Below are positions 29,355-63,581 of a stretch of DNA of 64,000 bases, piece after piece. Position 1 is the first letter of the stretch; the number at the start of each line of letters is the position of its first letter. Location: assembly GCA_028821605.1 (NCBI GenBank), contig JAPPFM010000016.1, positions 5,785 to 69,784 on the forward strand. The letters run 5' to 3'. This stretch comes from Candidatus Poribacteria bacterium. Its GTDB lineage: Bacteria; Poribacteria; WGA-4E; WGA-3G. Under the pieces are notes generated by a model. It worked only from the letters and a program-made list of their open reading frames with translations. It had not been told where the DNA came from and ran no database searches. The translations under genes and the position numbers were made by a program.

Positions 29355-29400
29355 AAAATTACGCAACCGTTTTGACCGAAATACGCGTCATTATATATTG
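29355..29400 (+). promoter_or_regulatory. ECF-type promoter, variant of the shared motif (ACGCAACCGTTTTG-N10-CGCGTCATTATATAT)
   Basis: Member of a 13-copy conserved promoter family. Sits 37 nt upstream of 29437. Confidence 0.5.
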
Positions 29401-29436
29401 AGGTAAGGACTCAAATTTTAGTGAGGGAATTGAAAA

Positions 29437-31059
29437 ATGGAAACTTTGAATACCTATAAAGAATCAACAACTAACAAAATCACGCTCAATCTTGATGGCA
29501 ACGCCGAAGTGTCTGTGAAAGGCTTCATCGCTCCAATTGAGAACACCCTGTCCAATTTTCATGTCGAGTGGGATGCATTGGCACATCTACGCGTCACTGA
29601 ACCAGAAAAACGCTATCCAGTATCTGTTTTTCGAGCATTTCTTCCGAACAAGCCTGTTTCGGTAGGCGACCTTTGGCAAATTGAAGAAGCCAGCGTCCTT
29701 GAATTGCTCCAGCAACTTCATCCCGATCCGACTTTGGATATGCACATTAATTCTGGCGATTCCCGTGGATTGTGGGCATGTCTGCGCGCTTACAACGATC
29801 AGTTTGCCGAGATCGTTTTTCGGATTCATGCGGAGTTCAAGTTAGAAGGAGGTTGGTTTACACCGTCGCAGTTTGCGGGCACTCTCGTTATTGATAGGAT
29901 TGAACAGCGTGTTGTATTTTTTGAGATGTACGTCCCAGAAAGTACTGTGAATTTTGATCTCAACTGGACGAGTGCTGATGCTGGCTTCTGCTCGCAGATG
30001 GAACTCCGTGCTGGGACACAGGATATTATTCGAGAGATTGAATTCACAGAAGCCATCACCTATGAGGCAGCGAAGCACTCCTTAATACTGTGTTTCTACG
30101 AATCGGCGCGGATTAACTGGGTGCCACCGAGTCAGGTGTTAGAGACAGCACAAGCACAACAGAAACCGATTCATGCTATATCCATAGATGGACCCTTAGC
30201 AGATGAGTCGTGCTGAGGGAGTGGAAAAGGTTTGAGAGCAGTTGCTCTCTCTGATGAACAGAATATAGCGTTCTTGAACGAAAATTTCATCAACACTTGG
30301 GTATCGAATGTTGAATTAAGAAGGACACCGAGGAAGCGTGCCTTCATGACACGGCGGTTTCAAGATGAATCCAAGACATTTGACAGAAGTTATCCTTTGG
30401 CACAGGCTATCATGAAGGGGTGGAGCGAGCATTCACCCGTGGATTGTTTGATTCTCTCGCCGGAACTTGAGTTGATGGGCAGTATGCCTGTTAACGATTT
30501 CTTTGATACCGAATTGGAAGGACTTGGGGATGAGGAGGCGTATCTTTTCTTTCTTGAAGCATCGTTAACCGGGAAAAAACCCGGATTGGATGGTAGCACT
30601 TTGAAACCTCAGCCAACAACTGATTGGAATGCTTTTTTCAATTCAGGGACTGTTGTGAACAGTTTGAAAGTTGCGCTCACCCATGAGTGTCCTGAACAAG
30701 AGGTATTGAACATTTTTCGGACACCAGAATCTGGCTATCAAGATTATACCGTCACTGAGGTTGATACAACGGCATTTGAAAATGGCGGCACGCTCATTGT
30801 TGATATATCAGTAGGAGGTGCTGAACCTGCAGGGTCATTTGATTTATACAGTGGGGATAGCGAATTACCCACTGAAGGTGTGCCTCAGGACGCACTCGGC
30901 TCGGCATGGGGTGTTCCGCCTTGTAAAACGGGAATTATTAGGTATCCGTTTGAGCGAGGTGGGTTTTTTAAGTTGGGTGCTACTGGTGATTGGTTCAGTG
31001 AGAAGGGGAGTATCAACGCTTTTCTCGCTAAAGTTTCCGTGAAATCTGAAACGGAATAG
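29437..31059 (+). CDS. Candidate Cys-Sec selenoprotein, paralog 1: ORFs 29437..30216 and 30232..31059 joined by an in-frame UGA at 30214 (..DGPLADESC-U-GSGKGLRAVALSDEQ..)
   Basis: Both ORFs are in the same frame and separated by 15 nt. The downstream ORF has no ATG (only a TTG). The Cys-UGA sits where the thioredoxin-fold CxxC would be (beta-strand PIHAISIDG before, helix ..NIAFLNENFINTWV.., cis-Pro-like SPVDCLILSP after). A conserved hairpin lies 17 nt 3' of the UGA. The C-terminal domain is shared with the sensor of the 41739 sigma fusion. Confidence 0.5.
30234..30249 (+). promoter_or_regulatory. Candidate bSECIS hairpin GAGAGC-AGUU-GCUCUC
   Basis: Perfect 6-bp stem 17 nt after the UGA, conserved in all three paralogs. 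Confidence 0.4.
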
Positions 31060-31080
31060 CTGTGGATATGGAGGTAAAGA

Positions 31081-32622
31081 GTGATAAACCTTTGTAATGT
31101 ACTAAATAGTTCGACACGTCTACAGGTGCATGCACATTGGGATCCTATTGCGGATTCTACGTTTAATATGCACAAAGACTCACCAGAACTCACTGAGTTA
31201 TTTGACCTGTCTCCAAATCAGCCTGTCAAGGAATACGGGATAGATGTTTTCAATGCGTTCCTTCCACCATCAACTGTAGCGGTAGGAGATGTTTGGGAAC
31301 TTGATCCGAACAGGCTTATTTCCTTCTTTCATCAGTTTCATCCCGGTGCGACCACAGCCGTCTATCACGGGGCGGAAGGTGCGTTCGCATGTTTGCGTGC
31401 GTTTTCATCGGATTACGCTGAGGTCGCTTTCCGAATTCATGCTGATTTCACACTGGAGAGCGCTGCCTATAAGGCGTGGCAAGACGAAAACTCGTCGGAG
31501 GACGATGATAATAAATCCCGTTTTGTCCCTTCTCATTTTGTTGGACGGTTGTTAATCAATCTGAAAGAAGGGACAGTTCGAGCGTTTTCATTTTATCTTC
31601 CTCCACGCAATAGTAACGTTATCATCAGTGCCTTTGGTGGTATTGACATGGTATTTGTGCCGCGCATGGAACTCCTCACTACAGATGAAACCGATCAGGA
31701 CGAAATCGCGTGGGACGCTGCTATCACAACGGAAGAGGCACACCGCACCTTGGAACTGAAGTTCTACAAATTCGCGGAGGTTGATTGGCTCCCGATGGAT
31801 AAGGCGGTCGCACAGGCGAAAGCAACCAATCGTCCGATCCATGCAATCTCGGTCTGGGGGTGCTTAGACAATGAATCGTGCTGAGCGAACGGCAAGTATT
31901 TGAGGGCGGGTCCGCTCTCCGATCCAGAGGTTATAAGAACGCTCAACGAAAAGTTTGTCAATACGTGGGTGCTCCTCCGAGAATTGCCGGAACTGATAAG
32001 TGGTGCAAAAGGGGAGGCAGTTAGTCTCGTTGCTAAAAAAATGAAACACCACTATACGGACTCTGTAGACATCCTTGCACTGACTCCCGATGCGGAAGTT
32101 ATCATGCATCAACCGGAGATGGCACTGCCTTACAAGAATCAGGCACAAGCGTACCTATCAGTGTTACAGCATACTGTGAGTACGTTTGAAGGGAGACGTA
32201 TTCGTGTTGGACAAGGGTCAAAATTAGATGGAAATCCAATCAGTTTGGGGACGGAGTTAATGGAGGTCTTGCAGGTTTTTCGCGCTTCTGATACCGATAT
32301 GCCGAATTACACGGTCGTTGAAATTGATACGACATCGTTTGAACGCGGCGGGATACTTCACATTGAGATACAAGTCGGAACAGGTGAGGCAGCAGGGACG
32401 TTTGAGTTGTTTGATGCCGATGCCGAAATTCCTACAGAAGGTGATACAGATGAAGCACTGGAAGGTGCATGGGACGTTCCGCCCGGTGGTATAGGGCATA
32501 TCTTCCACGATTTTAGACGGGGTCGGCGTTTTAAGTTGGTCGCTACGGGTTCGGAGAATCAGGCAAACTGCACCAATGCTTTTCTGGCGCGTGTTTCTGT
32601 CGTCCCACCGTTTGAAAAATAG
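31081..32622 (+). CDS. Candidate Cys-Sec selenoprotein, paralog 2: ORFs 31081..31884 and 31900..32622 joined by an in-frame UGA at 31882 (..VWGCLDNESC-U-ANGKYLRAGPLSDPE..)
   Basis: Same architecture as paralog 1: same frame, a 15-nt gap, TTG-only downstream start, a hairpin 17 nt after the UGA. Confidence 0.5.
31902..31919 (+). promoter_or_regulatory. Candidate bSECIS hairpin GAGGGCG-GGUC-CGCUCUC
   Basis: 7-bp stem with one G-U pair and a GGUC loop, 17 nt after the UGA. Confidence 0.4.
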
Positions 32623-32794
32623 AATATATTATCTTAGCCTATCTGTCAACGTCGGACTGCATGTCCACGTTTCTATTCAACAAGCATGCGTTCGACGTTG
32701 ATTTTCAACATTCACCTCCGTTTTTATTCTCAAACCCACCAAAGTACATACCAAATTGGTAATTTTGTGTCCGATTTCTCTAATTTTTTTGAAA

Positions 32795-32837
32795 AATTCG
32801 GCAACCGTTTTGTTTGTCACCCGCGTCACTATATATC
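32795..32837 (+). promoter_or_regulatory. Shared ECF-type promoter (TTCGGCAACCGTTTTG-N9-CGCGTCACTATATAT)
   Basis: Member of the conserved promoter family, preceded by a TTTTTTGAAAAATT element. Confidence 0.5.
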
Positions 32838-32900
32838 GACACGATATTTATGTGACAAATTTTGGAAGATTTAAATGACTCCATAGGGGGAAAAGAAAAC

Positions 32901-33716
32901 ATGTTACGGGCGTTTATTGCTGCTTTTTCGAGTGTCGTTATGTTATTGTTGGTGGCTTCTGCCAACGCCGGTTTGGATGAAGACCTTGTTTTTTATTTGA
33001 CGTTTGATAATGTTAAAAATCAGACGATTATTGATGAATCTGGGAACGGTCTTGATGCAGAAATACTTGAGCATGCCGAGATTGTCAAGGGTAAATATGG
33101 AGATGCAATCCGTCTTACAGATCAAGGGGGGAATTGTGTTAATATTCCTGCTCAGGAGAAATTGAAAGTTGTAGGTGAAATAACAATGACGCTATGGGTT
33201 TATTATCAAAAACCATGGGTAGGTAGTAGAACACATTGGTTTGATAAAGACTGTCATACGGTTGGTTGGGGTGCTTCTTATGGTATTATGAGTGCTGATA
33301 TTGGTAACGGACCGGAGATCTGGCTGTTTTTGGGATCCCTGGATGAACGAAGAAATACAAATCGACAGCAACTCGTAATTCCACACAAAATGGATGGAAA
33401 AAAATGGCATCACGTTGCTGGAAGCTACGATGGGAAAACCATGAAAATCTATGTAGATGGTGAAATCATAGGGGAAGAAGAGAAAAAATTCAACTTCGTT
33501 GGTGATAATGACTCAGATTTTCGGATCGGGTGCGCAAAAGAGAGAGCACATGTTACATTCGTCAACGGTTCTATTGACGAAGCTGCAGTATGGCAACGAG
33601 CATTGAGCGATAATGAAATCAAACAAGCCATGACAGGAAACTTTCTCGCTGTTTCACTGGGTGATAAGGTCGCCACGACTTGGGCGGATATGAAAAAGAG
33701 GGCAATAGCCCGTTAG
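32901..33716 (+). CDS. Secreted LamG/concanavalin-like protein with C-terminal ..VATTWADMKKRAIAR tail
   Basis: ATG at 32901 after GGGGGA. Signal peptide, LamG_3-like motifs (..DESGNGLDAEI.., ..KIYVDGE..). Confidence 0.6.
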   Translation: MLRAFIAAFSSVVMLLLVASANAGLDEDLVFYLTFDNVKNQTIIDESGNGLDAEILEHAEIVKGKYGDAIRLTDQGGNCVNIPAQEKLKVVGEITMTLWVYYQKPWVGSRTHWFDKDCHTVGWGASYGIMSADIGNGPEIWLFLGSLDERRNTNRQQLVIPHKMDGKKWHHVAGSYDGKTMKIYVDGEIIGEEEKKFNFVGDNDSDFRIGCAKERAHVTFVNGSIDEAAVWQRALSDNEIKQAMTGNFLAVSLGDKVATTWADMKKRAIAR

Positions 33717-33825
33717 CGAATTTCTGAAACGTGAGAATGCTATTACCTTATTAATGCTTCAGAATCCTTTAAGTGATAATGAAGGGGCATATTTAAGCAT
33801 ATTATTTTACGTATGTGCACCTATG

Positions 33826-33871
33826 CAGAATTAAGCAACCGTTTTGTCTGTCACCCGCGTCACTATATATT
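33826..33871 (+). promoter_or_regulatory. Shared ECF-type promoter plus start of the conserved leader
   Basis: TTAAGCAACCGTTTTGTCTGTCACCCGCGTCACTATATAT. Confidence 0.5.
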
Positions 33872-34135: not shown

Positions 34136-34642
34136 ATGAAATGCTTCGCAATAATAGTCCTAAGTATGGCAGTATTAATTATTGGAAATGCTCAGGATGC
34201 TCGATATGATGTTGGTATTAGTGTATTTAGCGATGAAAACGAGGTGGGTGAGAAGGTAAAGGCTCTCCTCACAGAGGAACTCCAGAAGATCGGAGACATT
34301 AATGTGGTGGATCCGACATGGAGCACCTACAAGTTGTCTGTGATTGCCATTGAGACTAAAACTAAAGACAGGCAGGAAAAAACTGGCGATATTGCAGTAG
34401 TGTGCAGTATTCTAATAGCATACGATAATAGTCGTGTTGTCAGTCTGATTCCAGAGGACATGCCAGAACTACGGAAAAAGGTCTACGAAGAAACGAAGCA
34501 TCTCTATCAAGAACCTGTAATGGGATTGTATAGTGATGATACGGCTAAAATAAGAACGATATGCAGAAACATCGTAGAACAATTCAATATGAATGTCCTT
34601 AACGAACAGCGGAGAGAAAAAGGAAATCTCTTCTTTCACTAG
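34136..34642 (+). CDS. Secreted hypothetical protein
   Basis: Signal peptide, no recognisable domain. Sits downstream of a shared promoter and the conserved leader. Confidence 0.45.
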   Translation: MKCFAIIVLSMAVLIIGNAQDARYDVGISVFSDENEVGEKVKALLTEELQKIGDINVVDPTWSTYKLSVIAIETKTKDRQEKTGDIAVVCSILIAYDNSRVVSLIPEDMPELRKKVYEETKHLYQEPVMGLYSDDTAKIRTICRNIVEQFNMNVLNEQRREKGNLFFH

Positions 34643-34720
34643 GAAAAGAGAGTTGTGAATCCTCGCGAGTTCAAAACTACAAATTTCAGTCCAAACCTGC
34701 TGATTGCATTTCTTTTTCCA

Positions 34721-34769
34721 GAATTAGGTAACTAACCGTTTTGTCCGTGTACCCGCGTCACTATATAAG
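34721..34769 (+). promoter_or_regulatory. Shared ECF-type promoter, variant with 4-nt insertion (GGTAACTAACCGTTTTG...CGCGTCACTATATAA)
   Basis: Directly precedes the RBS of 34779. Confidence 0.45.
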
Positions 34770-34778: not shown

Positions 34779-35588
34779 ATGCAGATAGTCCACACGCTTA
34801 TGTTGGGTATCATTGTCACCGGTTTATTGTCCATTGCCGATGCAGAGGCTGATAGTATAAAAACGCAACTTGAAGTATCCGCGCGACACAGCGAATCGGT
34901 GAAAGTTACGACCTCCGATGAGCGTATCGTCAATGCGTTTATCGTTTATCCAGCGGTGAAAGAACCCGCAACGGCTATCATCGTCATCCACCAGGGTCGC
35001 GGACTCACCAACTGGGTCCGGCTCGTCGCAGACACACTCGCTGCCGAAGGGTTTGTCGCAATTTGTCCAGATCTGCTTTCCGGCATGGGGCCCGACGGTG
35101 GCGGCACAGAAAGTTTCCACTCAAGGGACGACGTACCATGGGCTATCAGTGAACTCCCACCCTCCCAAGTCACATCCGACCTGGATGCCATCCAAAAATA
35201 TGTCCGTAATCTGCCTTCAACCAACGAAAAAGTAGCAGTTTCCGGATTCTGCTGGGGAGGCGGTCAAACGTTCAGGTACGCTGTCCATTCCGACACAATA
35301 GCGGCTAGCTTTGTGTTTTACGGTCCTGCCCCATCAACGGAAGATATCCCCAAAATATCAGCACCCGTGTATGGCTTCTACGCCGAGAACGACAATCGTA
35401 TCAATGCCACAATTGATGCCACTAAAGCCGCGGCGGATGCCGCAAACATCACCTACGAGCCCGTCATCTATGAAGGGGTCGGTCACGCCTTCCTGATGCG
35501 CGGTATGACAGAAGATGCCGACGAAGCACAGAAAACTGCCACCAAAGCCGTATGGGAACGGTGGGTATCCCTCCTAAGAGGGCTCTAA
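34779..35588 (+). CDS. Secreted dienelactone hydrolase family protein
   Basis: Signal peptide, ..AIIVIHQGRGL.., nucleophile elbow GFCWGG, C-terminal ..GVGHAF... Confidence 0.8.
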   Translation: MQIVHTLMLGIIVTGLLSIADAEADSIKTQLEVSARHSESVKVTTSDERIVNAFIVYPAVKEPATAIIVIHQGRGLTNWVRLVADTLAAEGFVAICPDLLSGMGPDGGGTESFHSRDDVPWAISELPPSQVTSDLDAIQKYVRNLPSTNEKVAVSGFCWGGGQTFRYAVHSDTIAASFVFYGPAPSTEDIPKISAPVYGFYAENDNRINATIDATKAAADAANITYEPVIYEGVGHAFLMRGMTEDADEAQKTATKAVWERWVSLLRGL

Positions 35589-35651
35589 AGGAATACGCGT
35601 GAATAATTTTGTGTATTTTCTCGGATTTGTGTCCGATTTCCTCGATTTTTT

Positions 35652-35698
35652 GAAAAATTAGGCAACCGTTTTGTCTGTTACCCGCGTCACTATATATT
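35652..35698 (+). promoter_or_regulatory. Shared ECF-type promoter
   Basis: TTAGGCAACCGTTTTGTCTGTTACCCGCGTCACTATATAT after a TTTTTTGAAAAATTAGG element. Confidence 0.5.
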
Positions 35699-35817
35699 AA
35701 GGTCAGAATCTACGCGAACAGAACTCTCTGTAGAGAGGATGTTTCTGTAGCGTATTTCCTATAATTCAGTATAGGGAAAATAAAAGATCAAAATTTATCC
35801 ATAGTTGGGAGCATCCT

Positions 35818-36843
35818 ATGACGCGCAAGTCTGTTTCTCTTTATTCAATGGATCGGGGTTATACCAAGTTTACGATATTATGTTATGCTGTCAGCGTGTT
35901 ATTTGTGTTCAGTAGCAGTGCTTCTGTGTGGGCAAAAATTCCGGAAACAGCAAAAATAGCGTTTACGTCAACCAGAGATGGAAGGACCGAAATCTATCTC
36001 ATGAACCCTGATGGCACCGTGCCGGTGAATGTAAGCCAGCATGCAGGAGCAGAGGATTACAATCCTGTCTGGTCGCCAGACGGAAAGCAAATTCTGTTCA
36101 TCTCAGATCGGGAAAAACTCTTTGATTTGTATCTTATGGATGCAGATGGCACAAATGTCCGGAAGGTATTTAAAACCGAGGCACTCAGAAGAGATCCGGC
36201 GTGGTCTCCTGATGGCAAACGAATTACCTACGCACAAGGAGAAGAACCCAACCAAGAAATCTATATTGCTGCAATAGATGGTACATTCGTTGAAAAACTG
36301 ACAGACGGGTTCATGCCAAATTGGTCGCCCGATGGGAACGAGATAGCCTTTGTGGTGGGAGGTATCAAACACACTCCACTGGGTATCTTCGACTTACAGA
36401 CAAGTACCCAAAGGATACTCCTCTCAAAGGAGGTACCGTGGATAGTTAATCCAAACTGGTCACCACGCGGAGACAAAATCGCCTTTTCAAAAATAGACGG
36501 ACGCTTCGATCCAAATGGTTTTCTTTGGTGGGAGAGGTCAAACATTTACGTTGCAAATCGTGATGGAACAGGACTTCATCAGATTACCAAGGATGAAGAA
36601 TCAATTTGTCAGAGTCCCACTTGGTCTCCACACGGCAGCGAACTCATTTACACGGATGTAGTCAGACAACCGGGGAAAAACATTTCTGTGCAATTGTTCA
36701 GAACAGATTTGAGTGGTGCTAACCCAACACAATTGACGCATAAAGGAAATAATTCTCGCGCGGATTGGTTTGACCCAACGTTAAGCGTTTCACCTTCGGT
36801 GCAATTGTTAAGGACGATATGGGGAAAAATCAAAGTGGATTAA
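35818..36843 (+). CDS. TolB-like PD40 beta-propeller protein, paralog 1, C-terminal ..VQLLRTIWGKIKVD tail
   Basis: Signal peptide, repeated ..SPDGKxIxF.SDR..DLYLMDADG.. PD40 units. Confidence 0.7.
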   Translation: MTRKSVSLYSMDRGYTKFTILCYAVSVLFVFSSSASVWAKIPETAKIAFTSTRDGRTEIYLMNPDGTVPVNVSQHAGAEDYNPVWSPDGKQILFISDREKLFDLYLMDADGTNVRKVFKTEALRRDPAWSPDGKRITYAQGEEPNQEIYIAAIDGTFVEKLTDGFMPNWSPDGNEIAFVVGGIKHTPLGIFDLQTSTQRILLSKEVPWIVNPNWSPRGDKIAFSKIDGRFDPNGFLWWERSNIYVANRDGTGLHQITKDEESICQSPTWSPHGSELIYTDVVRQPGKNISVQLFRTDLSGANPTQLTHKGNNSRADWFDPTLSVSPSVQLLRTIWGKIKVD

Positions 36844-36989
36844 GTTAACCGTGAACTGTAAGGAGCATTAAATAAACATGAAAAGGAAGGGTTGATTTTC
36901 TCAATGTTAACAATATGGGTCTTGGGGTTAAGCTTAACGCTTCAAAGCGCTGCTGATAAGATAAACATCGAAAACATATCTAATTTTTT

Positions 36990-37036
36990 GAAAAATTAGG
37001 CAACCGTTTTGTCTGTTACTCGCGTCACTATATATC
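36990..37036 (+). promoter_or_regulatory. Shared ECF-type promoter
   Basis: Identical core, part of a tandemly duplicated unit. Confidence 0.5.
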
Positions 37037-37155
37037 AAAATAGCATCTACACGAACAAACCTCTTTGTAGAGAGAATGTTTATGTGGCGTATTTCCTATA
37101 ATTCAGTATAAGATAAAATCGAAGATCAAAATCTATTCATAATGGAGAATGTCTT

Positions 37156-38202
37156 ATGCAGTGCAAAGCTGTTTTTCCTTGTTCAGGAGATCAAGGCTAT
37201 GTCAAGTTAGCAATGTTAAGTTATACGATTAGTGTTCTACTTGTGTTCAGTGGCAGTGCTATCGTATGGGCGGAAGGCCCAGCGACAGCGAAAATCGCGT
37301 TCATGTCAAAGCGGGACGGCAATCCTGAAATCTATATAATGAACTCTGACGGGAGTGACCAAGTCAATTTGACCCAGCATCCCGCAGCCGATTATCATCC
37401 AGCCTGGTCGCCAAACGGAAAACACATACTTTTCAGTTCTGATCGAGATGGAATCTTCGATTTGTATCTTATGGATGCCGATGGGACAAATGTGCGAAAG
37501 GTGTTTGCAAGCAGCAAATATAGATGGGAGCCTGCTTGGTCGCCCGACGGTAAACGGATTGCCTATGCACAGGGAGACCCAGGAAAAGCAAAACTACAAT
37601 TTGGGATGCGATTTGTTCCTTACGCTGACCTCACGCTCTGCGTCGCGACCCTAAATGGAGGCTCCGTTGAGAAATTGACAGATGGATTCATGCCAAGTTG
37701 GTCTCCTGATGGGCGCGAGATAGCTTTTGTGGTGGGTGGACGCGAAAGCACACCATTGGGTATTTTTGATCTACAGAGGCGCACCCGAAAGATACTCCTT
37801 TTAAAAGAGATGCCGTGGATATTTGATCCGAAGTGGTCTCCACAAGGTGACAAAATCACTTTTGCGAAACTCGAGGGAGCAGAGTTTGATGGACAGGGTT
37901 TTCTTGTGTCTAGGAAGGGGACGATCTATACTGTGGATAGCAATGGCAAAGGACTTCATCAGATTACCGATGAACATTCCTCCTATAACCCCACTTGGTC
38001 TCCAGATGGCAACGAACTCATTTACAACGCTCGGGCGGGCGTTTTTTCACAACTCTTCAAAATGGATCTGGACGGCGGTAATCCAACGCAACTGACACAC
38101 GACGGCAGTAATTCGAGTCCAGATTGGTTTGACCCAACATTAAGCGTTTCACCTTCGGTACAATTATCAACGACGATGTGGGGAGAAATCAAAGCGGATT
38201 AA
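37156..38202 (+). CDS. TolB-like PD40 beta-propeller protein, paralog 2, C-terminal ..VQLSTTMWGEIKAD tail
   Basis: Same architecture as 35818. Confidence 0.7.
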   Translation: MQCKAVFPCSGDQGYVKLAMLSYTISVLLVFSGSAIVWAEGPATAKIAFMSKRDGNPEIYIMNSDGSDQVNLTQHPAADYHPAWSPNGKHILFSSDRDGIFDLYLMDADGTNVRKVFASSKYRWEPAWSPDGKRIAYAQGDPGKAKLQFGMRFVPYADLTLCVATLNGGSVEKLTDGFMPSWSPDGREIAFVVGGRESTPLGIFDLQRRTRKILLLKEMPWIFDPKWSPQGDKITFAKLEGAEFDGQGFLVSRKGTIYTVDSNGKGLHQITDEHSSYNPTWSPDGNELIYNARAGVFSQLFKMDLDGGNPTQLTHDGSNSSPDWFDPTLSVSPSVQLSTTMWGEIKAD

Positions 38203-38349
38203 GTTAACCGTGAACTGTAAGGAGCATTAAATAAACATGAAAAGGAATTGGTTGATTTTCTCAATGTTAGCAATATGGGTCTTGGGGTTAAGCTTAACGC
38301 TTCAAAGTGCTGCTGATAAGATAAACATTGAAAACACATCTAATTTTTT

Positions 38350-38396
38350 GAAAAATTAGGCAACCGTTTTGTCAGTCACCCGCGTCACTATATATC
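38350..38396 (+). promoter_or_regulatory. Shared ECF-type promoter
   Basis: Identical core, tandemly duplicated unit. Confidence 0.5.
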
Positions 38397-38515
38397 AAAA
38401 TAGCATCTACACGAACAAACCCCTTTGTAGAGAGAATGTTTACGTAGTGCATTTCTTATAATTCAGTGTAAGATAAAATCGAAGATCAAAACCTATTCAT
38501 AATGGAGAATGTCTT

Positions 38516-39583
38516 ATGAAGCGCAAAGTTGTTTTTCCTTGTTCAAGAGATAAAGGTTATGTTAAGTTTGCAGTGTTAAGTTATATGATCAGTGCTCTAC
38601 TTGTGTTCAGTAGCAGTACTTCTGTGTGGGCAAAAGCCCCGGCGACAGCGAAAATTGTGTTTATGTCAAAGCGAGATGGCAACGCCGAAATCTATATCAT
38701 GAATCCTGATGGGAGTGAGCAGGTGAATTTGAGCCAGCACCCTGCAGCAGATTATGATCCGGCTTGGTCACCGAACGGAAAACATATCCTATTCAGTTCT
38801 GATCGAGACGGTGGCGTTTTCGATTTATACCTTATGGATGCAGACGGCAGAAATGTCCAGAAGGTGTTTGAAAACAGCGCATATAGAAGAAATCCAAATT
38901 GGTCGCCTGATGGTAAACAGATTGTCTATGCGCAGGGAGATCCACAAAAGGCAAAACTACACTTTGGATTACGACTCATCCCACTAGCCGATCTCACGCT
39001 TTATGTTGCAACACTAAAAGGGGACTCTGTTGAGAAATTAACGGATGGGTTTATGCCGAGTTGGGTGATTGATGGCAGCGAAATAGCCTTTGTGGTGGGT
39101 GGCATCGAACATACGCCGCTGGGTATTTTCGACTTGCAGACGCATATCCAAAAGATGCTTCTCTTGAAGGAGATGCCTTGGATAATTCATCCGAGCTGGT
39201 CCCCACAGGGGGACAAAATCGCCTTCACGGAAATCAATAGGGCAGGGTTTGATGGGCAAGAATTTCTTTCGTTTGAGGACTCAGCACTCTACATAACGAA
39301 TAACGATGGAATAGGACTTCATCAGATAACTAAAGATGAAGAAGACTTCCCTTCTGAGCCCACTTGGTCTCCACACGGCGATGAACTCATTTACACAGCT
39401 TTAGTCTTGGAACCGGGTAAAGGTGGGGCACAACTTTTCAAAACGGACCTGAACGGTGGTAATCCAACGCAACTGACACACGACGGTAGTAACTCGAGTC
39501 CGGATTGGTTTGACCCAACATTAAGCGTTTCACCTTCGGTACAATTATCAACGATGATGTGGGGAGAAATCAAAGCAGATTAA
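38516..39583 (+). CDS. TolB-like PD40 beta-propeller protein, paralog 3, C-terminal ..VQLSTMMWGEIKAD tail
   Basis: Same architecture. Immediately followed by selenoprotein paralog 3, probably in one operon. Confidence 0.7.
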   Translation: MKRKVVFPCSRDKGYVKFAVLSYMISALLVFSSSTSVWAKAPATAKIVFMSKRDGNAEIYIMNPDGSEQVNLSQHPAADYDPAWSPNGKHILFSSDRDGGVFDLYLMDADGRNVQKVFENSAYRRNPNWSPDGKQIVYAQGDPQKAKLHFGLRLIPLADLTLYVATLKGDSVEKLTDGFMPSWVIDGSEIAFVVGGIEHTPLGIFDLQTHIQKMLLLKEMPWIIHPSWSPQGDKIAFTEINRAGFDGQEFLSFEDSALYITNNDGIGLHQITKDEEDFPSEPTWSPHGDELIYTALVLEPGKGGAQLFKTDLNGGNPTQLTHDGSNSSPDWFDPTLSVSPSVQLSTMMWGEIKAD

Positions 39584-39606: not shown

Positions 39607-41610
39607 ATGAAAATCTTAACAATGGGACTGCTCATTCTGGTAGTGATGGGTGGACAACTGAGTGCTGATGACCACTCGGCAACTAACAACAAAATTACAC
39701 TGAGTCTTGATGGGGCATCAAAAGTGTTAGTAAAAGGCTTCATCGCCCCAATTGAATATACACAATACAACTTCCATGTGGATTGGGACGAATTGGCGAA
39801 CCTACGGGTTGCTGCGCCAGAGAAAAGGTATCCAACGTCGATTTTCCGTGCTTTTCTGCCCTCCGAAGCGGTTTCTGTCGGCGACCTCTGGCAGATTGAG
39901 GAAGAGGGCACGCTGGAATTACTGAGGCAACTGAACCCCAACCCGAGGCTGGACCTGGACATCAATGCGGGAGATTCCCGCGGACTATGGGCATGTCTGC
40001 GCGCCTACAATGATGAATTTGCTGAGATTGTATTCCGCATCCATGCAGAATTTGTCTTAAACGACGGGCGATTCACTCCCTCTCAGTTTACAGGATATCT
40101 TGTTATTGATCGAATTAGAGAGGAGATTGCCGCCTTCAAGATGTATGTTCCTGAAGGTATACTGAATTTTGATGTCGGACGAAACAGCACCCGAGCTATA
40201 GATGTCGGTTTTTGTCCGCAAATAGAACTCCGTACGGGGAAGCAAAATGTTGTGCGAGAGAGTAAGTTCACAGAAGCCATCACGCACCTGGAAGCGGAAC
40301 GCTCTCTAATACGACGTTTCTACAAATCGCAGCAGATCGAATGGGTATCTTTAGAGGAGGCATTGGAGATGGCACCAGCACAAGGGAAGCCGGTTCACGT
40401 TATCTCCATAGATGGACCTCTTGCGGATGAGTCGTGCTGAGGGAGCGGAAAGACTTTGAGGGCAGGTGTCCTCTCCGACGACCGAATTATAAAGTACTTG
40501 AACGAAAATTTTATCAACACTTGGGTCCCCAATTCTGAATTAGGTCGCGTCCCAAGTTTGCGGGAACCGATTACCAAGAGACGCGAACGCGAATCCAAGA
40601 CGTTTGACACAACGCATGCTTTGGCACAAGCTATTATGGAGAGTTGGAAGAAAGGTTCCCCTGTAGATTGTTTTGTTATATCACCAACATTTGAATTAAT
40701 GGGGAGGCAACCTGTCAATGAACTTCTTTTTGATGGTGGAAACACACCGCGACATTACTTGACGTTTCTCCAGGAGTCTTTGGCAGGAAAGCTCCCTGGG
40801 TTTGGTGAGGATACCTCGCAACCTCCACCAGTACCTGATTCGGAGGCTTTTTCTGAATTAGATGCTGCTATGTCAAAGGATTTGAAAGTTATACTCACGA
40901 GTGAAAGACCTAAGCGGGAAGTTCTCAACATTTTTCGGACACCAAAATCAGGATACCAAGATTATACTGTCATTGAAATTGACGCTACAGCGTTTAAGGG
41001 CGAGGGGTTACTTACTATTGACATCTTGGTAGGGAGTGCTGACCCCGAGGGGTCGTTCGACCTTTATGATGGTGACACTGAACTCCCTACACGGGGTACG
41101 CCTCATAGCGCGCTCGCCTCTGCATGGGGTGTTCTCCCCGGTAAAAAGGGAACAATCAAGTATCGTTTTGACCGGGGGAAAGTTTTTAAGTTGGGCGGTA
41201 CTGGCAGTTGGTTCAGTGAGGAAGGGAGTATCAACGCTTTTTTGGCGAAAATCTCTGTTGAATCGGATCAGGAACCGGAGCCAAGAAAAGAGGCATCGGC
41301 GCGCTCAGAGCAATCTGCGGAAGATGTAATGAACGCTTTCGTGGAAGCATTCAAGAATCTTGACGCAGAAGTAATACTTTCGATGCTTACAGAGGATGCC
41401 AAAGAAACATTTGGAGATAATTTTCAGGATGTGCCAGAGGATGTGCGTACGCAGATGCGTCAAATGTTGCGTCAGATGGAGGTTTTGAGCAGCGAATATG
41501 TGGGTAATGAATTCCATTTTCGATTAAGAGTGCCGATGGCACAGCCGCCCGAGAAATCTGTTAAAATGCGAAAAGTGGAAGGTATCTGGCGCATTTATGA
41601 TATTGAGTGA
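39607..41610 (+). CDS. Candidate Cys-Sec selenoprotein, paralog 3: ORFs 39607..40440 and 40456..41610 joined by an in-frame UGA at 40438 (..DGPLADESC-U-GSGKTLRAGVLSDDR..). Has N-terminal signal peptide and extra C-terminal extension.
   Basis: Same frame, 15-nt gap, TTG-only downstream start, a hairpin 17 nt after the UGA. N-terminal MKILTMGLLILVVMGGQLSA signal peptide. Confidence 0.5.
40458..40473 (+). promoter_or_regulatory. Candidate bSECIS hairpin GAGGGC-AGGU-GUCCUC
   Basis: 6-bp stem with one G-U pair and an AGGU loop, 17 nt after the UGA. Confidence 0.4.
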
Positions 41611-43247: not shown

Positions 43248-43853
43248 TCGGCATAGGTTGTGATTGATGTGTTGTCGGAACACTTGTCAATGAGACAATC
43301 ACGTAAAAGCCTCACACGACTCTATATTGACAAAACCCTTTCGGGCATCCGTTGCACGTTCAGGGAAAGACGCTTAAAGGTGCATCCCGCTAAAAATCAC
43401 GTGTCATATAATTTAGGCTGACTCTCTTAGAGTCACAAGGTTGGGACATCAACCTTTGGAGTAGAAGGTGTCAGACTTGCTATCACAAGCAACCTTTGTT
43501 GATACCACAATCTCACACAAAGTACAGAATTCTAAGAATCTCTGTGCTTTAGCACAGAGAGTATGTCAATGCAAATTAACCTACCCAATCATCAGTTTTT
43601 TGTCCCGCCATTTTCTCTCCGCTGATCTCACCAAAAGGTAAACTTTCCTGTACATCCTGCCTTATTTATGATAAACTATGAAAATATCGTAAAATCTACA
43701 ATTAATTAGACATTGTAGAAGGGCGAGGATACTACGAAGAAACACCGCAGCAAAAATACCCTCACGAGCGGCGGTGGGGTGTTTGTTCCCTGACGAATTG
43801 TAAACATATTTTTGGATTTTACTATAAAGGCGTTCCGTTTATCGATTTTTTTC

Positions 43854-43896
43854 GGAATTATGCACCCTTTTCATTCCTAAACATCGTCACTGTAGG
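43854..43896 (+). promoter_or_regulatory. ECF-fusion-type promoter, distal copy (GGAATTATGCACCC...ATCGTCACTGTAG)
   Basis: First of two tandem copies upstream of 44113. Confidence 0.4.
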
Positions 43897-43970
43897 GTAG
43901 TCGGGTCAGAATTCTGTTCCGATTTACTGGTTCAGGAATTCACATTCTGCCTGTGGTATAATATTTTTTC

Positions 43971-44014
43971 AGAATCATGCACCCTTTTCGTCTCTAAGTA
44001 GCGTCACTATAGGG
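43971..44014 (+). promoter_or_regulatory. ECF-fusion-type promoter, proximal copy (CAGAATCATGCACCC...AGCGTCACTATAG)
   Basis: Second tandem copy. A TGGTATAAT extended -10 also lies at 43955. Confidence 0.45.
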
Positions 44015-49164: not shown

Positions 49165-49267
49165 GTTGGGAAAAAATCGAGATTAGTTGTCGGTAGGCGA
49201 GGTTTCCTAACCTCGCCTCTTTAGTTTGTCCAATTAATTCCAAAATCCACTAATGTTTATATTTTTT

Positions 49268-49312
49268 GCAGAATTATGCACCAGCTTCACTTCTAAGTCG
49301 CGTCACTATAGG
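49268..49312 (+). promoter_or_regulatory. ECF-fusion-type promoter (GCAGAATTATGCACC...CGCGTCACTATAG)
   Basis: Conserved promoter family, 18 nt upstream of the 49330 start. Confidence 0.5.
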
Positions 49313-52395: not shown

Positions 52396-52427
52396 CTCCT
52401 CTTCTCCGCAAAAATTCTTTCTTTTTC

Positions 52428-52472
52428 GCGGAATTAAGCAACCGTTTTGCCCCTAAATTGCGTCACTATAGT
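52428..52472 (+). promoter_or_regulatory. ECF-fusion-type promoter (GCGGAATTAAGCAACCGTTTTG...TGCGTCACTATAG)
   Basis: Conserved promoter family upstream of 52516. Confidence 0.5.
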
Positions 52473-56660: not shown

Positions 56661-57989
56661 ATGCCGAAAGTTTTTGCCAAATCAACCTTTTCGTTTATGG
56701 CGGTGATGCTACTACTTCCCGTTATTCACATAGGGTGTAGTTCAAAGAGTCTTGATCAAAGTCAGCAAAACATTCTTGAGCAGCCTGAAAAAAACGCACC
56801 TGAACAGCATCAAAAGACGGTTCCCTCCATAAAACCGAAAGAGACAAGCATTTTCACCGTGATAGAGCTCGAAGATTTGGAATATCCAACACTCGCGGCT
56901 TCTATCCAATTACCCTTTAGCGTTCGTCCAAACAACACTATCATCCTCTCAGGAAAACACGCATACCTCACGACTGAACGCCACCTGCACGTCGTTGATG
57001 TTTCCATCCCGCAACGTCCTTCCTATCTAATATCTCTTGAGTTTCCTGATAAAATCGGCAAAGTCCTTGCTTCTGGAGACTATCTCGTTGTCGCAAGTCG
57101 AAAGAAATTTCATATTGTCGATGTCTCAGAGCCATCGCACCCTGTGCTGCAATCTACCACGCCTTTACCCCAACGAGACGCGATCAAGGACCTTGATGTT
57201 AGGGACGCTCACCTTTATGTTATCGGAGCGAATAGCACCCTATCCATTTTTTCCTTATATCGCGGACAGGCGCGACTCGTCAGGGCTGTTGAACTGGAGA
57301 AAAGATGGTGGTTGCTGAGTCTGAACGCCGTTCGCCCCGATGTGAAACAGGTTTCGCTATCAACCACAAACACTTTTCCGTCTGTTCTTTCGGAACCGCT
57401 CGCGTCTCGACGTGGGTTTTTACAACTTAGCAGCGGTAGACAAGAGAAAGTCCGCGCCTCTTCCGAGTTTATGGTTTTGGAGAGTTTGAGAGATCCGACC
57501 TGCGACCTGCTGACTTTTCATGTACACAGAGAGAATGATCCTCGGGCATTCCCAAGCGTGACATTACCAAGTGTAGACTACAACGTAGGTTTCTATAATG
57601 GCTACATGGGCTTCTATAATGTAGAACGGGAATATCGTGACCATCTCTCAGCAATAGGGGAAAAGACCCTCGTTCGCGGAAAACCGACAATTACATATAT
57701 CGTTGATGCCGGAAAGATGCAGCAAATTGCCCAAGATCCGTCGAGCGAGATGATAAATATTGAGGATAGGCGATTAACCGGACCTGTCACAGATTTTCAA
57801 ATGTCGGGGGATCTGCTTTATGTCGTCAACGCAAAAGGATTTTTTTCTGTAAAACGCCTTCATAAACCTGGACGAGATAACTATAGGTACGACCAATTTT
57901 TATCCGTCATACCGCTGCAGGCAAGTCGCCCGATAAGTCTGGCGGTTGTGGAAGGCTACGCCTTCGTATTAGCCACACCGAAAGATTGA
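56661..57989 (+). CDS. LVIVD-repeat-like lipoprotein (partner gene of the 52516 sigma fusion)
   Basis: Lipobox (VIHIGCSS). Repeated ..HLHVVDVS.., ..KFHIVDVS.., ..HLYVIG.. units resembling LVIVD beta-propeller repeats. Paralog of 61490. Confidence 0.55.
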   Translation: MPKVFAKSTFSFMAVMLLLPVIHIGCSSKSLDQSQQNILEQPEKNAPEQHQKTVPSIKPKETSIFTVIELEDLEYPTLAASIQLPFSVRPNNTIILSGKHAYLTTERHLHVVDVSIPQRPSYLISLEFPDKIGKVLASGDYLVVASRKKFHIVDVSEPSHPVLQSTTPLPQRDAIKDLDVRDAHLYVIGANSTLSIFSLYRGQARLVRAVELEKRWWLLSLNAVRPDVKQVSLSTTNTFPSVLSEPLASRRGFLQLSSGRQEKVRASSEFMVLESLRDPTCDLLTFHVHRENDPRAFPSVTLPSVDYNVGFYNGYMGFYNVEREYRDHLSAIGEKTLVRGKPTITYIVDAGKMQQIAQDPSSEMINIEDRRLTGPVTDFQMSGDLLYVVNAKGFFSVKRLHKPGRDNYRYDQFLSVIPLQASRPISLAVVEGYAFVLATPKD

Positions 57990-58290
57990 CAGTGATAAAT
58001 CTTTCTTCGTTGGTGAAATTTGTAATCTCGCCAGTTTTTGCATGGCGTGCGTGATTTTTCGTTTTTAACCCCCTAAATCCCCCTTATCAGGGGGACTTTT
58101 TCTCCTTTTTATCCGAAAACTAAATAGCCCTGAACCCGTAGTCGTATGCTTTACTATAGTCGAATCTGTGCTATAATTTTACCAATAGGAAAAGACAAGA
58201 CAGGCAGAATAATTACAATCACGCCTCACTACCCGTAATCAACAGAATAGCATCTCAAACCTCCTTTACATGAATCTGCTTTTTTCGTTT

Positions 58291-58333
58291 GCAGAATTGT
58301 GTGACTTTTTCATCGCAAATAGCGTCACTATGT
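58291..58333 (+). promoter_or_regulatory. ECF-fusion-type promoter (GCAGAATTGTGTGAC...AGCGTCACTATG)
   Basis: Conserved promoter family upstream of 58375. Confidence 0.45.
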
Positions 58334-58374
58334 GTTGAAATTAATACTGAACATTCCCTTTTTAGAGGTATCCG

Positions 58375-61489: not shown

Positions 61490-62839
61490 ATGCCGAAAAT
61501 TTTTGCCAAATCAATCTTTTCGTTTCTGACAGTGATACTACTTTCTATTGTTAACATAGGGTGCAGTTCAAAGAACCTTGAGCAGCTTGAAAAAAACGCC
61601 ACAGAGCAGAATCAAAAGACTGACACCTCTGTAAAACCCAAAGAGACGAGCATTTTCAGCGTGATAGAAATCGAAGATGTCGAACACCCGACACTCCCGG
61701 TCTCTATTCACCTCCCCTATCGTGCCCGCCCAAACAACACGGTCTGCCTCGCAGAAAAACACGCATACCTGACGACCGAAAGGCACTTGCATGTTATTGA
61801 TGTTTCTATCCCGCAACGTCCGTCCTATCTGACATCCCTCCCGTTCGGCAATGTCATCGGTAAGGCACTGATCGCTGGACACTATGTGATTGTCTCAGGA
61901 AAAAAACAGTTGTATCTCGTTAATATAGAGCAACCCTTACACCCCGTGATTGAATCCACCTTGCATTTACCCGATCGGAACACCATCAAGGACTTTGATG
62001 TTAGGGACTCTCACCTCTATGTTCTGGGTGCGAATGACACCCTATATGTTTTTTCCATAGATCTCGAACAAGCGCGACTCATCAAAACTATTGAACTGGA
62101 GAAACGTTGGTGGTTGCTGAGCCTGAAACCCGGCAGTCGTGAAGTGGAACAGATCCCACTCCCGACTTCAAGCACTTTTCCCACAGAAATTGGGGATCCA
62201 CTCCCGTCTGAACGCCAGTTTTTACAACTCCTCAGTAGCAAACAGGAGAAAGTCCGCGCATCGTCTATTTTTCTCGTAGTGGAGTGGCTGAGAGACCCAA
62301 CTTATGATCTGTTCAGTTTTGATACACACCGCAGCGTTGATGATCCTCCCACGACAAGCGAAATTATAGGCTACTATAACCTGGCGTTGGATTTTCGCAT
62401 GTATCTCGCCGGGACTGGACAAAAGACCCTCACTCGCAGCATTCCTGCACGTGCGTATGCAGTCGCAAATGGAAAGACGCAGGAAATCCTCCCAGAGCCA
62501 TCGAACGAGACGATCGACGTTGAAGCCAAACGGTTAAAACAATTAATAGGACCTGTCACAGATTTTCAAGTTTCCGGGGATCGACTTTACATCGTCACCG
62601 CAAACGGGTTCTTTTCTATTATACCAATTATCGGCGATCATTATCAGGACTCACACTATAGATATCAGCAATTATACTATAATAGAGAAGAGAGCATGAA
62701 AGATAAATGGCGTAAATTGAGTAACGAAGAGATACGTCTATTTTTACCGTTTCTGGCGGGCAGCCCGATAAGTCTGGCGATCGGTGAAGGTGAACATCAT
62801 GCTTATGTGTTATCTCATCCGGAAGATTCACAAAGGTGA
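61490..62839 (+). CDS. LVIVD-repeat-like lipoprotein (partner gene of the 58375 sigma fusion; paralog of 56661)
   Basis: Lipobox (VNIGCSS). Same repeat pattern as 56661, roughly 50% identical to it. Confidence 0.55.
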   Translation: MPKIFAKSIFSFLTVILLSIVNIGCSSKNLEQLEKNATEQNQKTDTSVKPKETSIFSVIEIEDVEHPTLPVSIHLPYRARPNNTVCLAEKHAYLTTERHLHVIDVSIPQRPSYLTSLPFGNVIGKALIAGHYVIVSGKKQLYLVNIEQPLHPVIESTLHLPDRNTIKDFDVRDSHLYVLGANDTLYVFSIDLEQARLIKTIELEKRWWLLSLKPGSREVEQIPLPTSSTFPTEIGDPLPSERQFLQLLSSKQEKVRASSIFLVVEWLRDPTYDLFSFDTHRSVDDPPTTSEIIGYYNLALDFRMYLAGTGQKTLTRSIPARAYAVANGKTQEILPEPSNETIDVEAKRLKQLIGPVTDFQVSGDRLYIVTANGFFSIIPIIGDHYQDSHYRYQQLYYNREESMKDKWRKLSNEEIRLFLPFLAGSPISLAIGEGEHHAYVLSHPEDSQR

Positions 62840-62967
62840 ACCCCTCGCGCTGGTTAACACACCGTATTGCAAAGACCATTCCTATTGGTTTCCTGCTGCG
62901 TCCTCCAATTTTTTCATAGGTGTATAAAGTTTTGACACGCACCATAAGTGTCAATTTAGGATTTCCG

Positions 62968-63203
62968 TAGGTTGGGTTGAGCGGAACTCAGAAGACTGGT
63001 GTGTTCTCCGAATACCTCTCAAATACAGCCTCTCGCCGTATCTAATCAAGAACCCAGCGAAACCCAACTTCACACCGTCAGCGTTTTGGTAACCACAAAA
63101 ATGTTGGGTTTCACTCGGTTTTTGTTTGAGGTGACATCTATGAAGAAGGTTGATTTTTCTATTTTTTTTCAATGTTTTGGTGGCATCCGTTCAACCCAAC
63201 CTA
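62968..63203. repeat. MITE-like nested palindromic repeat, copy
   Basis: TIRs GTAGGTTGGGTTGAGCGG / CGTTCAACCCAACCTAC, with an internal GCGAAACCCAAC / GTTGGGTTTCAC pair. Confidence 0.5.
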
Positions 63204-63538
63204 CGATGTTATGAAACTGTTTTTTCTATAATTGACACCTATAGTGTGTAAAGTTTTTGACACGCACTTATGAGAAGTGCTCCTTTGTCGCATAAACTGT
63301 TAGTTTGTGCCTCGCATTTCATAATTCTAAAAGCCTATATCCTAAAAACCCCCTTTTTTGTCAGCCCGCCGCTAAAATATTTACACATCTATTTTTTTAT
63401 AGGGATGTATATTTTTAACTGGATCTGTGATATAATTCTACGGACAAAAAGAAACAGAAGCGAATCGGACAATTGTAAACCCTCCTTACCTTTCATTATC
63501 AGCAAAATGGAATCTTAACCTTCTTTCTCCTATTTTTT

Positions 63539-63581
63539 GCAGAATTCTGCAACCGTTTTCCCCCTAAGTCGCGTCACAAGG
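63539..63581 (+). promoter_or_regulatory. ECF-fusion-type promoter (GCAGAATTCTGCAACCGTTTTC...CGCGTCACAAG)
   Basis: Conserved promoter family upstream of 63626. Confidence 0.45.

Follow-up and report, generated by a model that had tools for sequence, protein, structure and literature searches.

The cluster and its repeated upstream motif

The stretch of DNA analysed here, 64,000 nucleotides (nt) from contig JAPPFM010000016.1 of a Candidatus Poribacteria bacterium (the window below), carries thirteen copies of a 49-nt promoter-like motif between positions 29347 and 63581 and, from 41739 to its end, six genes encoding sigma factors of the extracytoplasmic function (ECF) type, most of them fused to large sensor-like domains. 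A preliminary description had read the motif as the common promoter of a self-contained sigma regulon. Its consensus is TTTTTT-gcAGAATTA-nGCA(A/C)CC(G)TTTT-N11/12-GCGTCACTATA. All 13 copies are intergenic and lie on the + strand, with + strand gene starts 23–278 nt downstream. Aligned on the anchor CGTCAC, they required no gap except for one extra spacer base at 34756 and gave the consensus TTTTTTgcaaAATTAnGCAaCCgTTTtg-N10-cGCGTCACTATAtaT, in which two information-rich blocks are separated by a spacer of fixed length and varying sequence. As promoter elements, these blocks would correspond to a −35 TGCA(A/C)CC followed by a T-tract and a −10 (G)CGTC located 18 nt downstream. The conserved A/T-rich part upstream (T6, then AATTA) may, speculatively, be UP-like. 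Seven non-sigma units share one variant, designated class A: GGCAACCGTTTTG-N10-CGCGTCACTATATAT. The copies, with the position of the anchor C in brackets, are as follows.

29347..29395, + strand: copy 1 (29386), class A-like with −10 CGTCAT; ATG 29437 lies 51 nt downstream
32785..32833, + strand: copy 2 (32824), class A; ahead of the LamG gene
33819..33867, + strand: copy 3 (33858), class A; 278-nt leader to the small secreted protein gene 34136-34642
34717..34765, + strand: copy 4 (34756), class A with TAACCG and a spacer longer by 1 nt; 23 nt ahead of the dienelactone hydrolase gene
35646..35694, + strand: copy 5 (35685), class A; ahead of the PD40/TolB-like gene 35818-36843
36984..37032, + strand: copy 6 (37023), class A; ahead of the PD40 gene 37156-38202
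38344..38392, + strand: copy 7 (38383), class A; heads the putative operon 38516-39583, 39607-41610, 41739-43067
43846..43894, + strand: copy 8 (43885), GCACCC variant; distal member of a tandem pair
43963..44011, + strand: copy 9 (44002), GCACCC variant; proximal member of the pair, 111 nt ahead of ATG 44113
49262..49310, + strand: copy 10 (49301), GCACCAG variant; 29 nt ahead of ATG 49330
52422..52470, + strand: copy 11 (52461), −35 GCAACCGTTTTG as in class A; 55 nt ahead of ATG 52516
58284..58332, + strand: copy 12 (58323), −35 variant GTGTGAC; 52 nt ahead of ATG 58375
63533..63581, + strand: copy 13 (63572), GCAACCGTTTT with −10 CGTCACAAGG; 54 nt ahead of ATG 63626

The motif was thus present at all 13 places named in the preliminary description, whose coordinates fell inside each copy in varying register. 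The number of transcription units, given there as at least 13, was lowered to 12 because the copies at 43885 and 44002 serve one gene; they form a tandem 52-nt duplicate, 117 nt apart, with different flanks, and a corresponding tandem pair is found in the related locus L006. The AAC...CGTC architecture stood as far as CGTC is concerned, GCGTCA occurring in 13/13 copies, and only in part for AAC, which is found in nine of them. The spacer between the two was not 17–18 nt as described, but 18 nt in eight copies and 19 nt in one (34756). Across the phylum, the AAC position varies between A and C.

Searching the window for CAACCGTTTTG with at most one mismatch yielded 11 matches, whereas 2.1 were expected from shuffled sequences; nine were the claimed sites and two lay on the minus strand inside open reading frames (ORFs). 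With up to three mismatches to CGCGTCACTATATAT, 10 matches were obtained against 0.8 expected, every one at a claimed site. A 62-nt matrix built from the 13 sites scored these at 25–79 bits and the rest of the 64 kb, both strands, at 10 bits or less; being self-trained, it informs in the window solely on the absence of further copies. The 37-nt core matrix found the 13 sites and one weak minus-strand match (29426, 12.4 bits), which sits between copy 1 and ATG 29437, about 550 nt from the divergent gene of a GH32 enzyme, and is probably due to chance. No copy was detected by the matrix scan in the first 29 kb of the window; this housekeeping half encodes DNA polymerase I, a class I aminoacyl-tRNA synthetase, UbiD, an ABC ATPase and the GH32 enzyme.

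Membrane-anchored sigma-fusion proteins

The six ECF sigma genes, all assigned to the + strand, are listed below; domain limits were taken from Pfam matches and hydrophobicity, with TM standing for transmembrane and aa for amino acids.

41739..43067, + strand: short ECF sigma, 442 aa, with sigma-2/sigma-4, TM helix 218-241 and an outside domain of ~190 aa
44113..47139, + strand: ECF sigma, TM helix and BNR/Sortilin-type propeller, 1008 aa
49330..52113, + strand: ECF sigma, TM helix and WD40 repeats, 927 aa
52516..56340, + strand: ECF sigma, TM helix, unassigned domain and WD40 repeats, 1274 aa
58375..61425, + strand: ECF sigma, TM helix and BNR/Sortilin-type propeller, 1016 aa; sigma-4 helix TVKTRIYRA
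63626..64000, + strand: sixth ECF sigma-family gene, of which the window includes the N-terminal part

The five full-length proteins contain N-terminal Sigma70_r2 (residues 23-89) and Sigma70_r4_2 (126-178) domains, and Pfam detected in the fusion proteins neither a region 1 or region 3 sigma match nor a FecR, zinc-finger or other anti-sigma domain. They exceeded the cut-off of the superfamily model TIGR02937 sigma70-ECF (99.7–100.8 bits vs 42.9), but fell below those of the SigW equivalog models NF007223 (107–116 bits vs 209) and TIGR02948 (100–108 vs 243). A linker of ~35 residues leads from sigma-4 to one strong hydrophobic helix (~217-245) in each full-length protein. Since the sigma module must be cytoplasmic, the C-terminal part would lie outside. 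The DNA-reading regions of sigma-2 and sigma-4 are highly conserved among the six paralogues. C81 is the only conserved cysteine, both in an alignment of 15 sigma domains and in that of the six. Just outside the helix, ~40 residues (YL.RFQ.PY.F.A.SEM.VELI.APVVL.LESKPD.RTQLG) are conserved as well as the sigma domain itself, among the paralogues and in the phylum. This juxtamembrane segment, encoded at 50080-50180 in the 49330 gene and at equivalent positions in the other fusion genes, is, from its conservation, a candidate site of a first proteolytic cut or of partner binding.

The layout suggested for these proteins is a cytoplasmic sigma-2/sigma-4 part, a conserved linker, the TM helix, the juxtamembrane segment and a variable outside domain, which would be WD40, a BNR/Sortilin propeller or a small domain. 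In the short ECF 41739, the C-terminal domain predicted to lie outside (...YTVVEIDATAFKDGGVLTIDL...FLAKISV, ~42700-43067) shares homology with a C-terminal or nearly C-terminal domain of the proteins encoded by three genes split by an in-frame TGA codon (TGA-split genes; matching regions approximately 30700-31059, 32270-32622 and 40950-41300). The sensor of 41739 would accordingly resemble a part of a product of its own putative regulon.

Distribution of the family in Poribacteria

Using the sigma-plus-helix N-terminus, 1176 relatives were found in the protein collection, the named ones all from Candidatus Poribacteria. In species-representative genomes, the confirmed relatives numbered at least 554, and the best 80 loci carry the label Poribacteria with a single exception, L071 ("uncultured bacterium"). 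The closest loci, L006 (OX638352.1) and L013 (OZ220722.1), share 87–90% DNA identity with the window. The 100-residue module consisting of linker, helix and juxtamembrane segment fell into 255 clusters at 50% identity among 1.84 billion representatives and was nearly always located at residues 184-283 of proteins of up to ~1,380 aa; on this comparison, the module is specific to this sigma family. Two or more family members lie within ~13 kb in 41 of the 84 fetched sources, and the median ORF has 979 aa. We found no paper describing this family in the literature on Poribacteria ECF sigmas or WD40 proteins. Because the family and the motif occur phylum-wide, at many loci per genome, it is unlikely that the regulon is "self-contained" as the preliminary description had it.

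In L013 (5792-6100), the promoter of the 63572 type is kept, its 62-nt site being identical, and ~150 nt further on there is a GAGAC-type promoter with a different sigma gene. Compared with the window, this suggests a local rearrangement or the loss of a gene.

Conservation of the motif ahead of sigma genes in other genomes

The 37-nt core matrix, trained on the window alone, was used to scan loci with homologous sigma genes. A match was found within 250 nt upstream of the sigma gene in 56 of 82 loci of other Poribacteria genomes, whereas 1.94 Mb of shuffled sequence gave four matches. The strong matches in other genomes were all oriented with the gene (88/88), and where an ORF followed, it belonged to the sigma family in 68 of 86 cases. 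The 127 matches in these loci were placed outside long ORFs in 91% of cases (19% of random positions) and within 300 nt of a co-oriented ORF start in 80% (9% of random positions). Start codons lie preferentially 29–31 nt or 50–56 nt after CGTC, behind a short leader bearing a GGAG-type site; transcription would be expected to start ~6–9 nt after CGTC, which would leave short leaders with such a ribosome site. GCA.CC, TTT and GCGTCA are conserved across Poribacteria promoters, and the motif keeps its position upstream of homologues whose sigma domains are 51–65% identical.

Matches ahead of non-sigma genes included orthologues of window targets, namely four TGA-split genes, one DUF3352 gene and one PD40 gene. 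A motif-first scan of Joint Genome Institute (JGI) metagenomes with the pattern GCAACCGTTTTN{11,12}GCGTCACTA produced six matches. Five of them are followed by a TGA-split gene, three PD40 genes and an ECF-BNR fusion gene, respectively one each; the sixth looks like chance. In one metagenome assembly, three contigs of together ~980 kb contained one strict copy each. The comparative evidence thus supports the earlier proposals of ECF-dependent promoters and of a regulon of mostly exported proteins.

Covariation of sigma factors with their promoters

When the loci were ordered by sigma similarity, clade-specific promoter variants became apparent. The last sigma-2 helix, W-x-R-K-K-R (W-L-R-K-K-R), contains an arginine (R86 of the 49330 protein) in 67 distinct sigma–promoter pairs, 64 of which have CGTC; whenever the residue is Q, H, D or K (nine sigmas), the −10 is TGTC, TATC or AGTC (Fisher p = 1.5e-9, in counts that ignore phylogeny). 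By reading of the tree, the link between Arg and CGTC extends over at least four independent lineages. R86 aligns with an Arg of B. subtilis SigW (DRIRKKK), and the residue is Val in E. coli RpoE and P. aeruginosa AlgU. The covariation supports a reading of the CG of CGTC by R86. In sigma-4, the helix K-N/T-R-L/I/V-Y-R-A, which includes that of 58375, pairs with a GAGAC/GTGAC/GAGAT −35 (9 promoters, 7 loci, within a single clade), and the helix T-I/V-R-S-R-L-R-R-A pairs with GCACCA.

Since variation in a promoter goes along with variation in the sigma whose gene directly follows it, self-recognition, and hence autoregulation, is the simplest reading. The autoregulation of the sigma-fusion genes proposed earlier is supported as well by the presence of the motif ahead of five window sigma genes and of their homologues elsewhere. 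Each large fusion gene has its own promoter variant and would be under positive autoregulation.

Promoter sub-classes and the possible assignment of class A

The notion that several paralogous sigmas share one promoter class proved too simple, since −35/−10 variants co-vary with the downstream sigma and the non-sigma units carry a single sub-class. The promoters of the window are better described, from their variants, as a family of sub-classes. The −35 variants of the sigma genes are GCACCC, GCACCAG, GCAACCG and GTGTGAC. Class A lacks the TAA found in the spacer of sigma-gene promoters, and its −35 GCAACCGTTTT is shared, among these, only by the promoters of 52516 and 63626, which suggests that the two sigmas may cross-activate class A. 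The sigmas 44113, 49330 and 58375 appear to have more private promoters.

No motif copy directly precedes the short ECF gene 41739, which closes the putative operon begun by the class A copy 38383. The order of class A promoter, TGA-split gene and short ECF is kept in L001, L020, L021 and L028, whose short-ECF sigmas, like that of L032, cluster with 41739; in L032 the order of TGA-split gene and short ECF is kept and no class A promoter was detected. The position of the short ECF at the end of a class A operon and the preserved synteny point to 41739 as the sigma that would most likely serve class A. In our judgement, the odds are about even that sigmas of the 41739 type control class A, perhaps assisted by those of the 52516 and 63626 types. 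In their sigma-4 helix region, the sigmas 41739 and 52516 are identical (GVSASTIKSRLRRAR).

Weighing the interpretation

We propose that the 13 copies are promoters read by RNA polymerase with ECF (group 4) sigmas of a Poribacteria-specific family, six of which are encoded here. On the strength of the sequence comparisons we estimate the probability of this reading at roughly 0.8.

Several points speak against this proposal or parts of it. Four of the 13 copies have no AAC (GCACCC, GCACCC, GCACCA and GTGACT), and the N18 spacer (in the convention TGAAAC-N16-CGTA) exceeds the 14–17 bp range given for ECF promoters (PMC5758882). The assignment of class A to 41739 is based on synteny, and the DNA-reading helices of this sigma are identical to those of the 52516 sigma. 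The covariation has the phylogenetic limits given above. Finally, that the sigmas would probably be held inactive at the membrane and freed by proteolysis once the outside domain senses a signal is purely what we infer from their architecture.

The alternative that fares best is that no promoter has a private specificity: every copy, those ahead of the sigma genes included, would be open to each of the paralogous sigmas, or a single master sigma would read them all. It would agree with the conserved DNA-reading regions of the six paralogues, with the GCGTCA kept in all window copies and with the situation in B. subtilis, where several ECF sigmas act on CGTC promoters that have a T-tract (PMC5758882). 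Nevertheless, we consider it improbable, as the −35 differs among the window sigma promoters, other genomes show the same −35 differences tied to the same sigma-4 helix variants, and all seven non-sigma units have one variant only.

A second alternative dispenses with ECF sigmas and assumes a sigma-70-type promoter (TTGTCT-N16-TATATT) combined with the operator of a dimeric regulator at the AATT-centred near-palindrome GCAGAATT(A/C)TGC. The class A copies indeed fit the hexamers at 9–10 of 12 positions (TTGTCT/TTGACC-16-TATATT), a further point against the ECF proposal, and GCAGAATTCTGC at 63572 is a perfect palindrome, the other copies being near-palindromic. The hexamer positions are, however, not the ones conserved across Poribacteria, and the TATA after CGTCAC becomes AAGG, TGGT or TTAA in many orthologous promoters. 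Moreover, the left half of the palindrome is weakly conserved (0.4–0.5 bit), and an unrelated regulator would not explain the covariation of −10 and −35 with the downstream sigma. We therefore regard this alternative as decidedly unlikely.

There is very little to be said for a third view, in which the copies are alike only because recent tandem gene duplication carried the upstream regions along, and have no function of their own. The three PD40 genes have clearly been duplicated in tandem together with their upstream regions (~200 nt alignable) and the sigma-fusion genes are paralogues, but the motif is carried also by unrelated genes (LamG, dienelactone hydrolase, small secreted protein, TGA-split and sigma-fusion genes) with unalignable flanks, its position is kept in genomes with diverged sigma domains, and the spacer changes in sequence between two constant blocks. 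Least credible of all is a generic dispersed repeat of Poribacteria, of the repetitive extragenic palindromic (REP) or miniature inverted-repeat transposable element type, which the many copies in a small region and the existence of other short dispersed repeats such as the GCGTAAGTCCTA inverted pairs might suggest, but which is contradicted by the lack of terminal inverted repeats and hairpin potential, by the intergenic, gene-directed placement of the copies elsewhere and by their scarcity in the metagenome assembly and the housekeeping genes. We take the cross-genome placement, orientation and metagenome results to rule out both of these last two explanations.

The reading as ECF-dependent promoters is thus retained, and the cluster is, on the sequence data, a well-supported local regulon with autoregulated, membrane-anchored sigma–sensor fusions.

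Comparison with known ECF systems

The B. subtilis sigmaW/M/X/V promoters have the form tGAAACnTTTt ... CGTA/CGTC, with overlapping recognition of CGTC promoters, and the extent of paralogue overlap is set by the −10 bases and the −35-proximal T-tract (PMC5758882). ECF sigmas usually autoregulate (PMC7826278). The Poribacteria promoters share with those of B. subtilis the −35 xGxAAC, one base, a T-tract near the −35, the −10 CGTC and autoregulation, and SigW of B. subtilis is the nearest solved and named relative of the Poribacteria sigma domain. They differ in their −35 TGCA(A/C)C, where the first A of AAC is often C, in the additional AATTA and T6 upstream and in the spacer, N18 here vs N16–17 in B. 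subtilis, ~2 nt longer here. In contrast to the free B. subtilis sigmas with separate anti-sigmas, the Poribacteria sigmas are membrane-anchored fusions.

With the promoters of E. coli sigmaE (RpoE), a free sigma held by RseA whose consensus is GGAACTT-N16-TGTCAAA, the motif has in common the −35 AAC followed by T's, the GTC core of the −10 and a distance from AAC to GTC of ~19 nt. Here, unlike in sigmaE promoters, a conserved CG precedes TC, and the covarying Arg is replaced by Val in RpoE and AlgU.

ECF fusions that span the membrane have been described before. IutY (ECF243) has been shown to be activated through regulated proteolysis (Prc, RseP), and the same has been proposed for ECF48/52/53, e.g. 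SCO4117 (PMC8999054). In both cases, as would hold for the Poribacteria proteins under the topology assumed here, sigma-2/sigma-4 is fused through TM helices to an outside sensing part. IutY-type hybrids join a FecI-like sigma to a FecR-like anti-sigma domain. The Poribacteria proteins differ from these known fusions by having no FecR-type or zinc-finger anti-sigma domain in Pfam searches, by the ~35-residue linker, by beta-propellers outside and by their phylum. The ECF57 group of Planctomycetes has WD40-like C-terminal repeats and amounts to 5.3 per planctomycetal genome (PMC7826278; PMC8999054); two conserved cysteines have been proposed to link its sigma-2 and sigma-4 (PMC8999054). C-terminal extensions are found also in ECF01-Gob (PMC4937300), likewise a group of Planctomycetes. 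Some members of the Poribacteria family likewise have WD40-type repeats after the sigma part, and there are multiple paralogues per genome. The cysteine pair of ECF57 has no counterpart in the family, where C81 alone is conserved, and many members have BNR/Sortilin or other domains in place of WD40.

Putative target genes, operons and nearby elements

The remaining genes of the cluster are the following.

29437..32622, + strand: target unit 1, two tandem genes (29437-31059 and 31081-32622), each split by one in-frame TGA
32862..33716, + strand: LamG-domain protein (Pfam Laminin_G_3) with signal peptide
34136..34642, + strand: small secreted protein, 168 aa, no family match
34779..35588, + strand: dienelactone hydrolase (Pfam DLH) with signal peptide
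35818..39583, + strand: three tandem PD40/TolB-like propeller paralogues (35818-36843, 37156-38202, 38516-39583), each with its own class A promoter and a conserved leader
39607..41610, + strand: third TGA-split protein, with signal peptide; probably co-transcribed with ECF 41739
47299..49164, + strand: DUF3352 protein, downstream partner of ECF 44113; followed by a terminator-like hairpin at 49195-49218
56661..57989, + strand: LVIVD-repeat lipoprotein, downstream partner of ECF 52516; followed by a terminator-like hairpin at 58078-58095
61490..62839, + strand: LVIVD lipoprotein paralogue, downstream partner of ECF 58375

The gene identities of the preliminary description were borne out by Pfam (Sigma70_r2 and r4_2 with WD40 or BNR/Sortilin, Laminin_G_3, DLH and three PD40), and its label "envelope-directed" is a fair one, 10 of the 12 non-sigma products having a signal-peptide-like hydrophobic start. 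Class A would drive the genes of the three PD40 propellers, the LamG protein, the dienelactone hydrolase, the small secreted protein and the TGA-split proteins. No weaker motif copy was found upstream of 41739, 47299, 56661 and 61490 or in the gap 43068-43850 (best score < −6 bits), and the four genes were therefore taken as co-transcribed with those preceding them. The gene spacing, the motif-free internal gaps and the two hairpins together define the 12 predicted units.

The three TGA-split genes consist of ORF pairs (29437-30216/30232-31059, 31081-31884/31900-32622 and 39607-40440/40456-41610) that are in frame across one TGA codon (30214-30216, 31882-31884 and 40438-40440), in the context ...DESC-TGA-GSGK.LRA.... 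The same split occurs in the orthologues at L001, L020, L021, L028, L032 and L083. The products, ~540–670 aa long and without a match in Pfam and NCBIfam, are probably selenocysteine proteins with a C-U motif.

The PD40 genes are tandem duplicates together with their upstream regions. The box CTACGCGAACAG occurs in the leaders of class A units at 33884-33895, 35710-35721, 37047-37058 and 38407-38418, and also at L001:848-859 and L021:3882-3893. Counted from the C of CGTC, its place is constant (+24 to +26) in units encoding different proteins in at least three genomes, and its conservation is such that it could be an operator or an element of the 5′ untranslated region. The leader common to four class A units can fold into a hairpin TCTAC-N16-GTAGA; as its covariation is almost nil and an Rfam scan of the window gave no match, we make no claim of an RNA element.

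Within the operon begun by copy 7, the 128 nt that separate 40456-41610 from the short ECF gene contain a perfect 11-bp hairpin, GGTTGGACGAA-N12-TTCGTCCAACC (41647-41680), which may be an attenuator or a processing site. Downstream of the operon, 780 nt (43068-43850) are devoid of + strand ORFs of 60 aa or more. They include a near-consensus sigma-70-type promoter, TTGACA-17-TAAAAT with TG (43208-43236), gave no Rfam match and may represent a non-coding RNA or a decayed gene. An inverted repeat, TAGGACTTACGC-N57-GCGTAAGTCCTA, was found right after the stop codon of 44113-47139 (47137-47217), and its 12-mer is present also at 26344-26355 on the minus strand. Among 88 Poribacteria loci, 16 contain the 12-mer GCGTAAGTCCTA, with 23 exact copies in all; many of these form inverted pairs with 70–110 nt between them, and by this distribution the 12-mer looks like a REP- or terminator-like dispersed element.

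Significance for the biology of Poribacteria

Autoregulated ECF promoters, overlapping recognition by paralogues and membrane-spanning ECF fusions are already established, so that no new principle is involved here. What may be particular to this phylum, a tentative view to which we give somewhat less than even odds, is a strongly expanded, phylum-specific set of membrane-tethered "one-component" sigmas with co-evolving private promoters and a hub class for exported proteins, probable selenoproteins among them. Part of the "eukaryote-like" WD40/BNR complement would then be re-labelled as the sensing ends of sigma factors; many WD40 "eukaryote-like repeat proteins" of sponge symbionts would be the extracytoplasmic sensors through which transcription factors respond to cues from the host or the matrix. 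The sigma family would also constitute a natural library of partly orthogonal sigma/promoter pairs, and the pairs of sigma residue and promoter base suggested here (R86 with CG, the ...YRA helix with GAGAC) are offered as testable. The promoter model can be used for scanning Poribacteria genomes to define regulons and so provides a testable map for an uncultured phylum of sponge symbionts.

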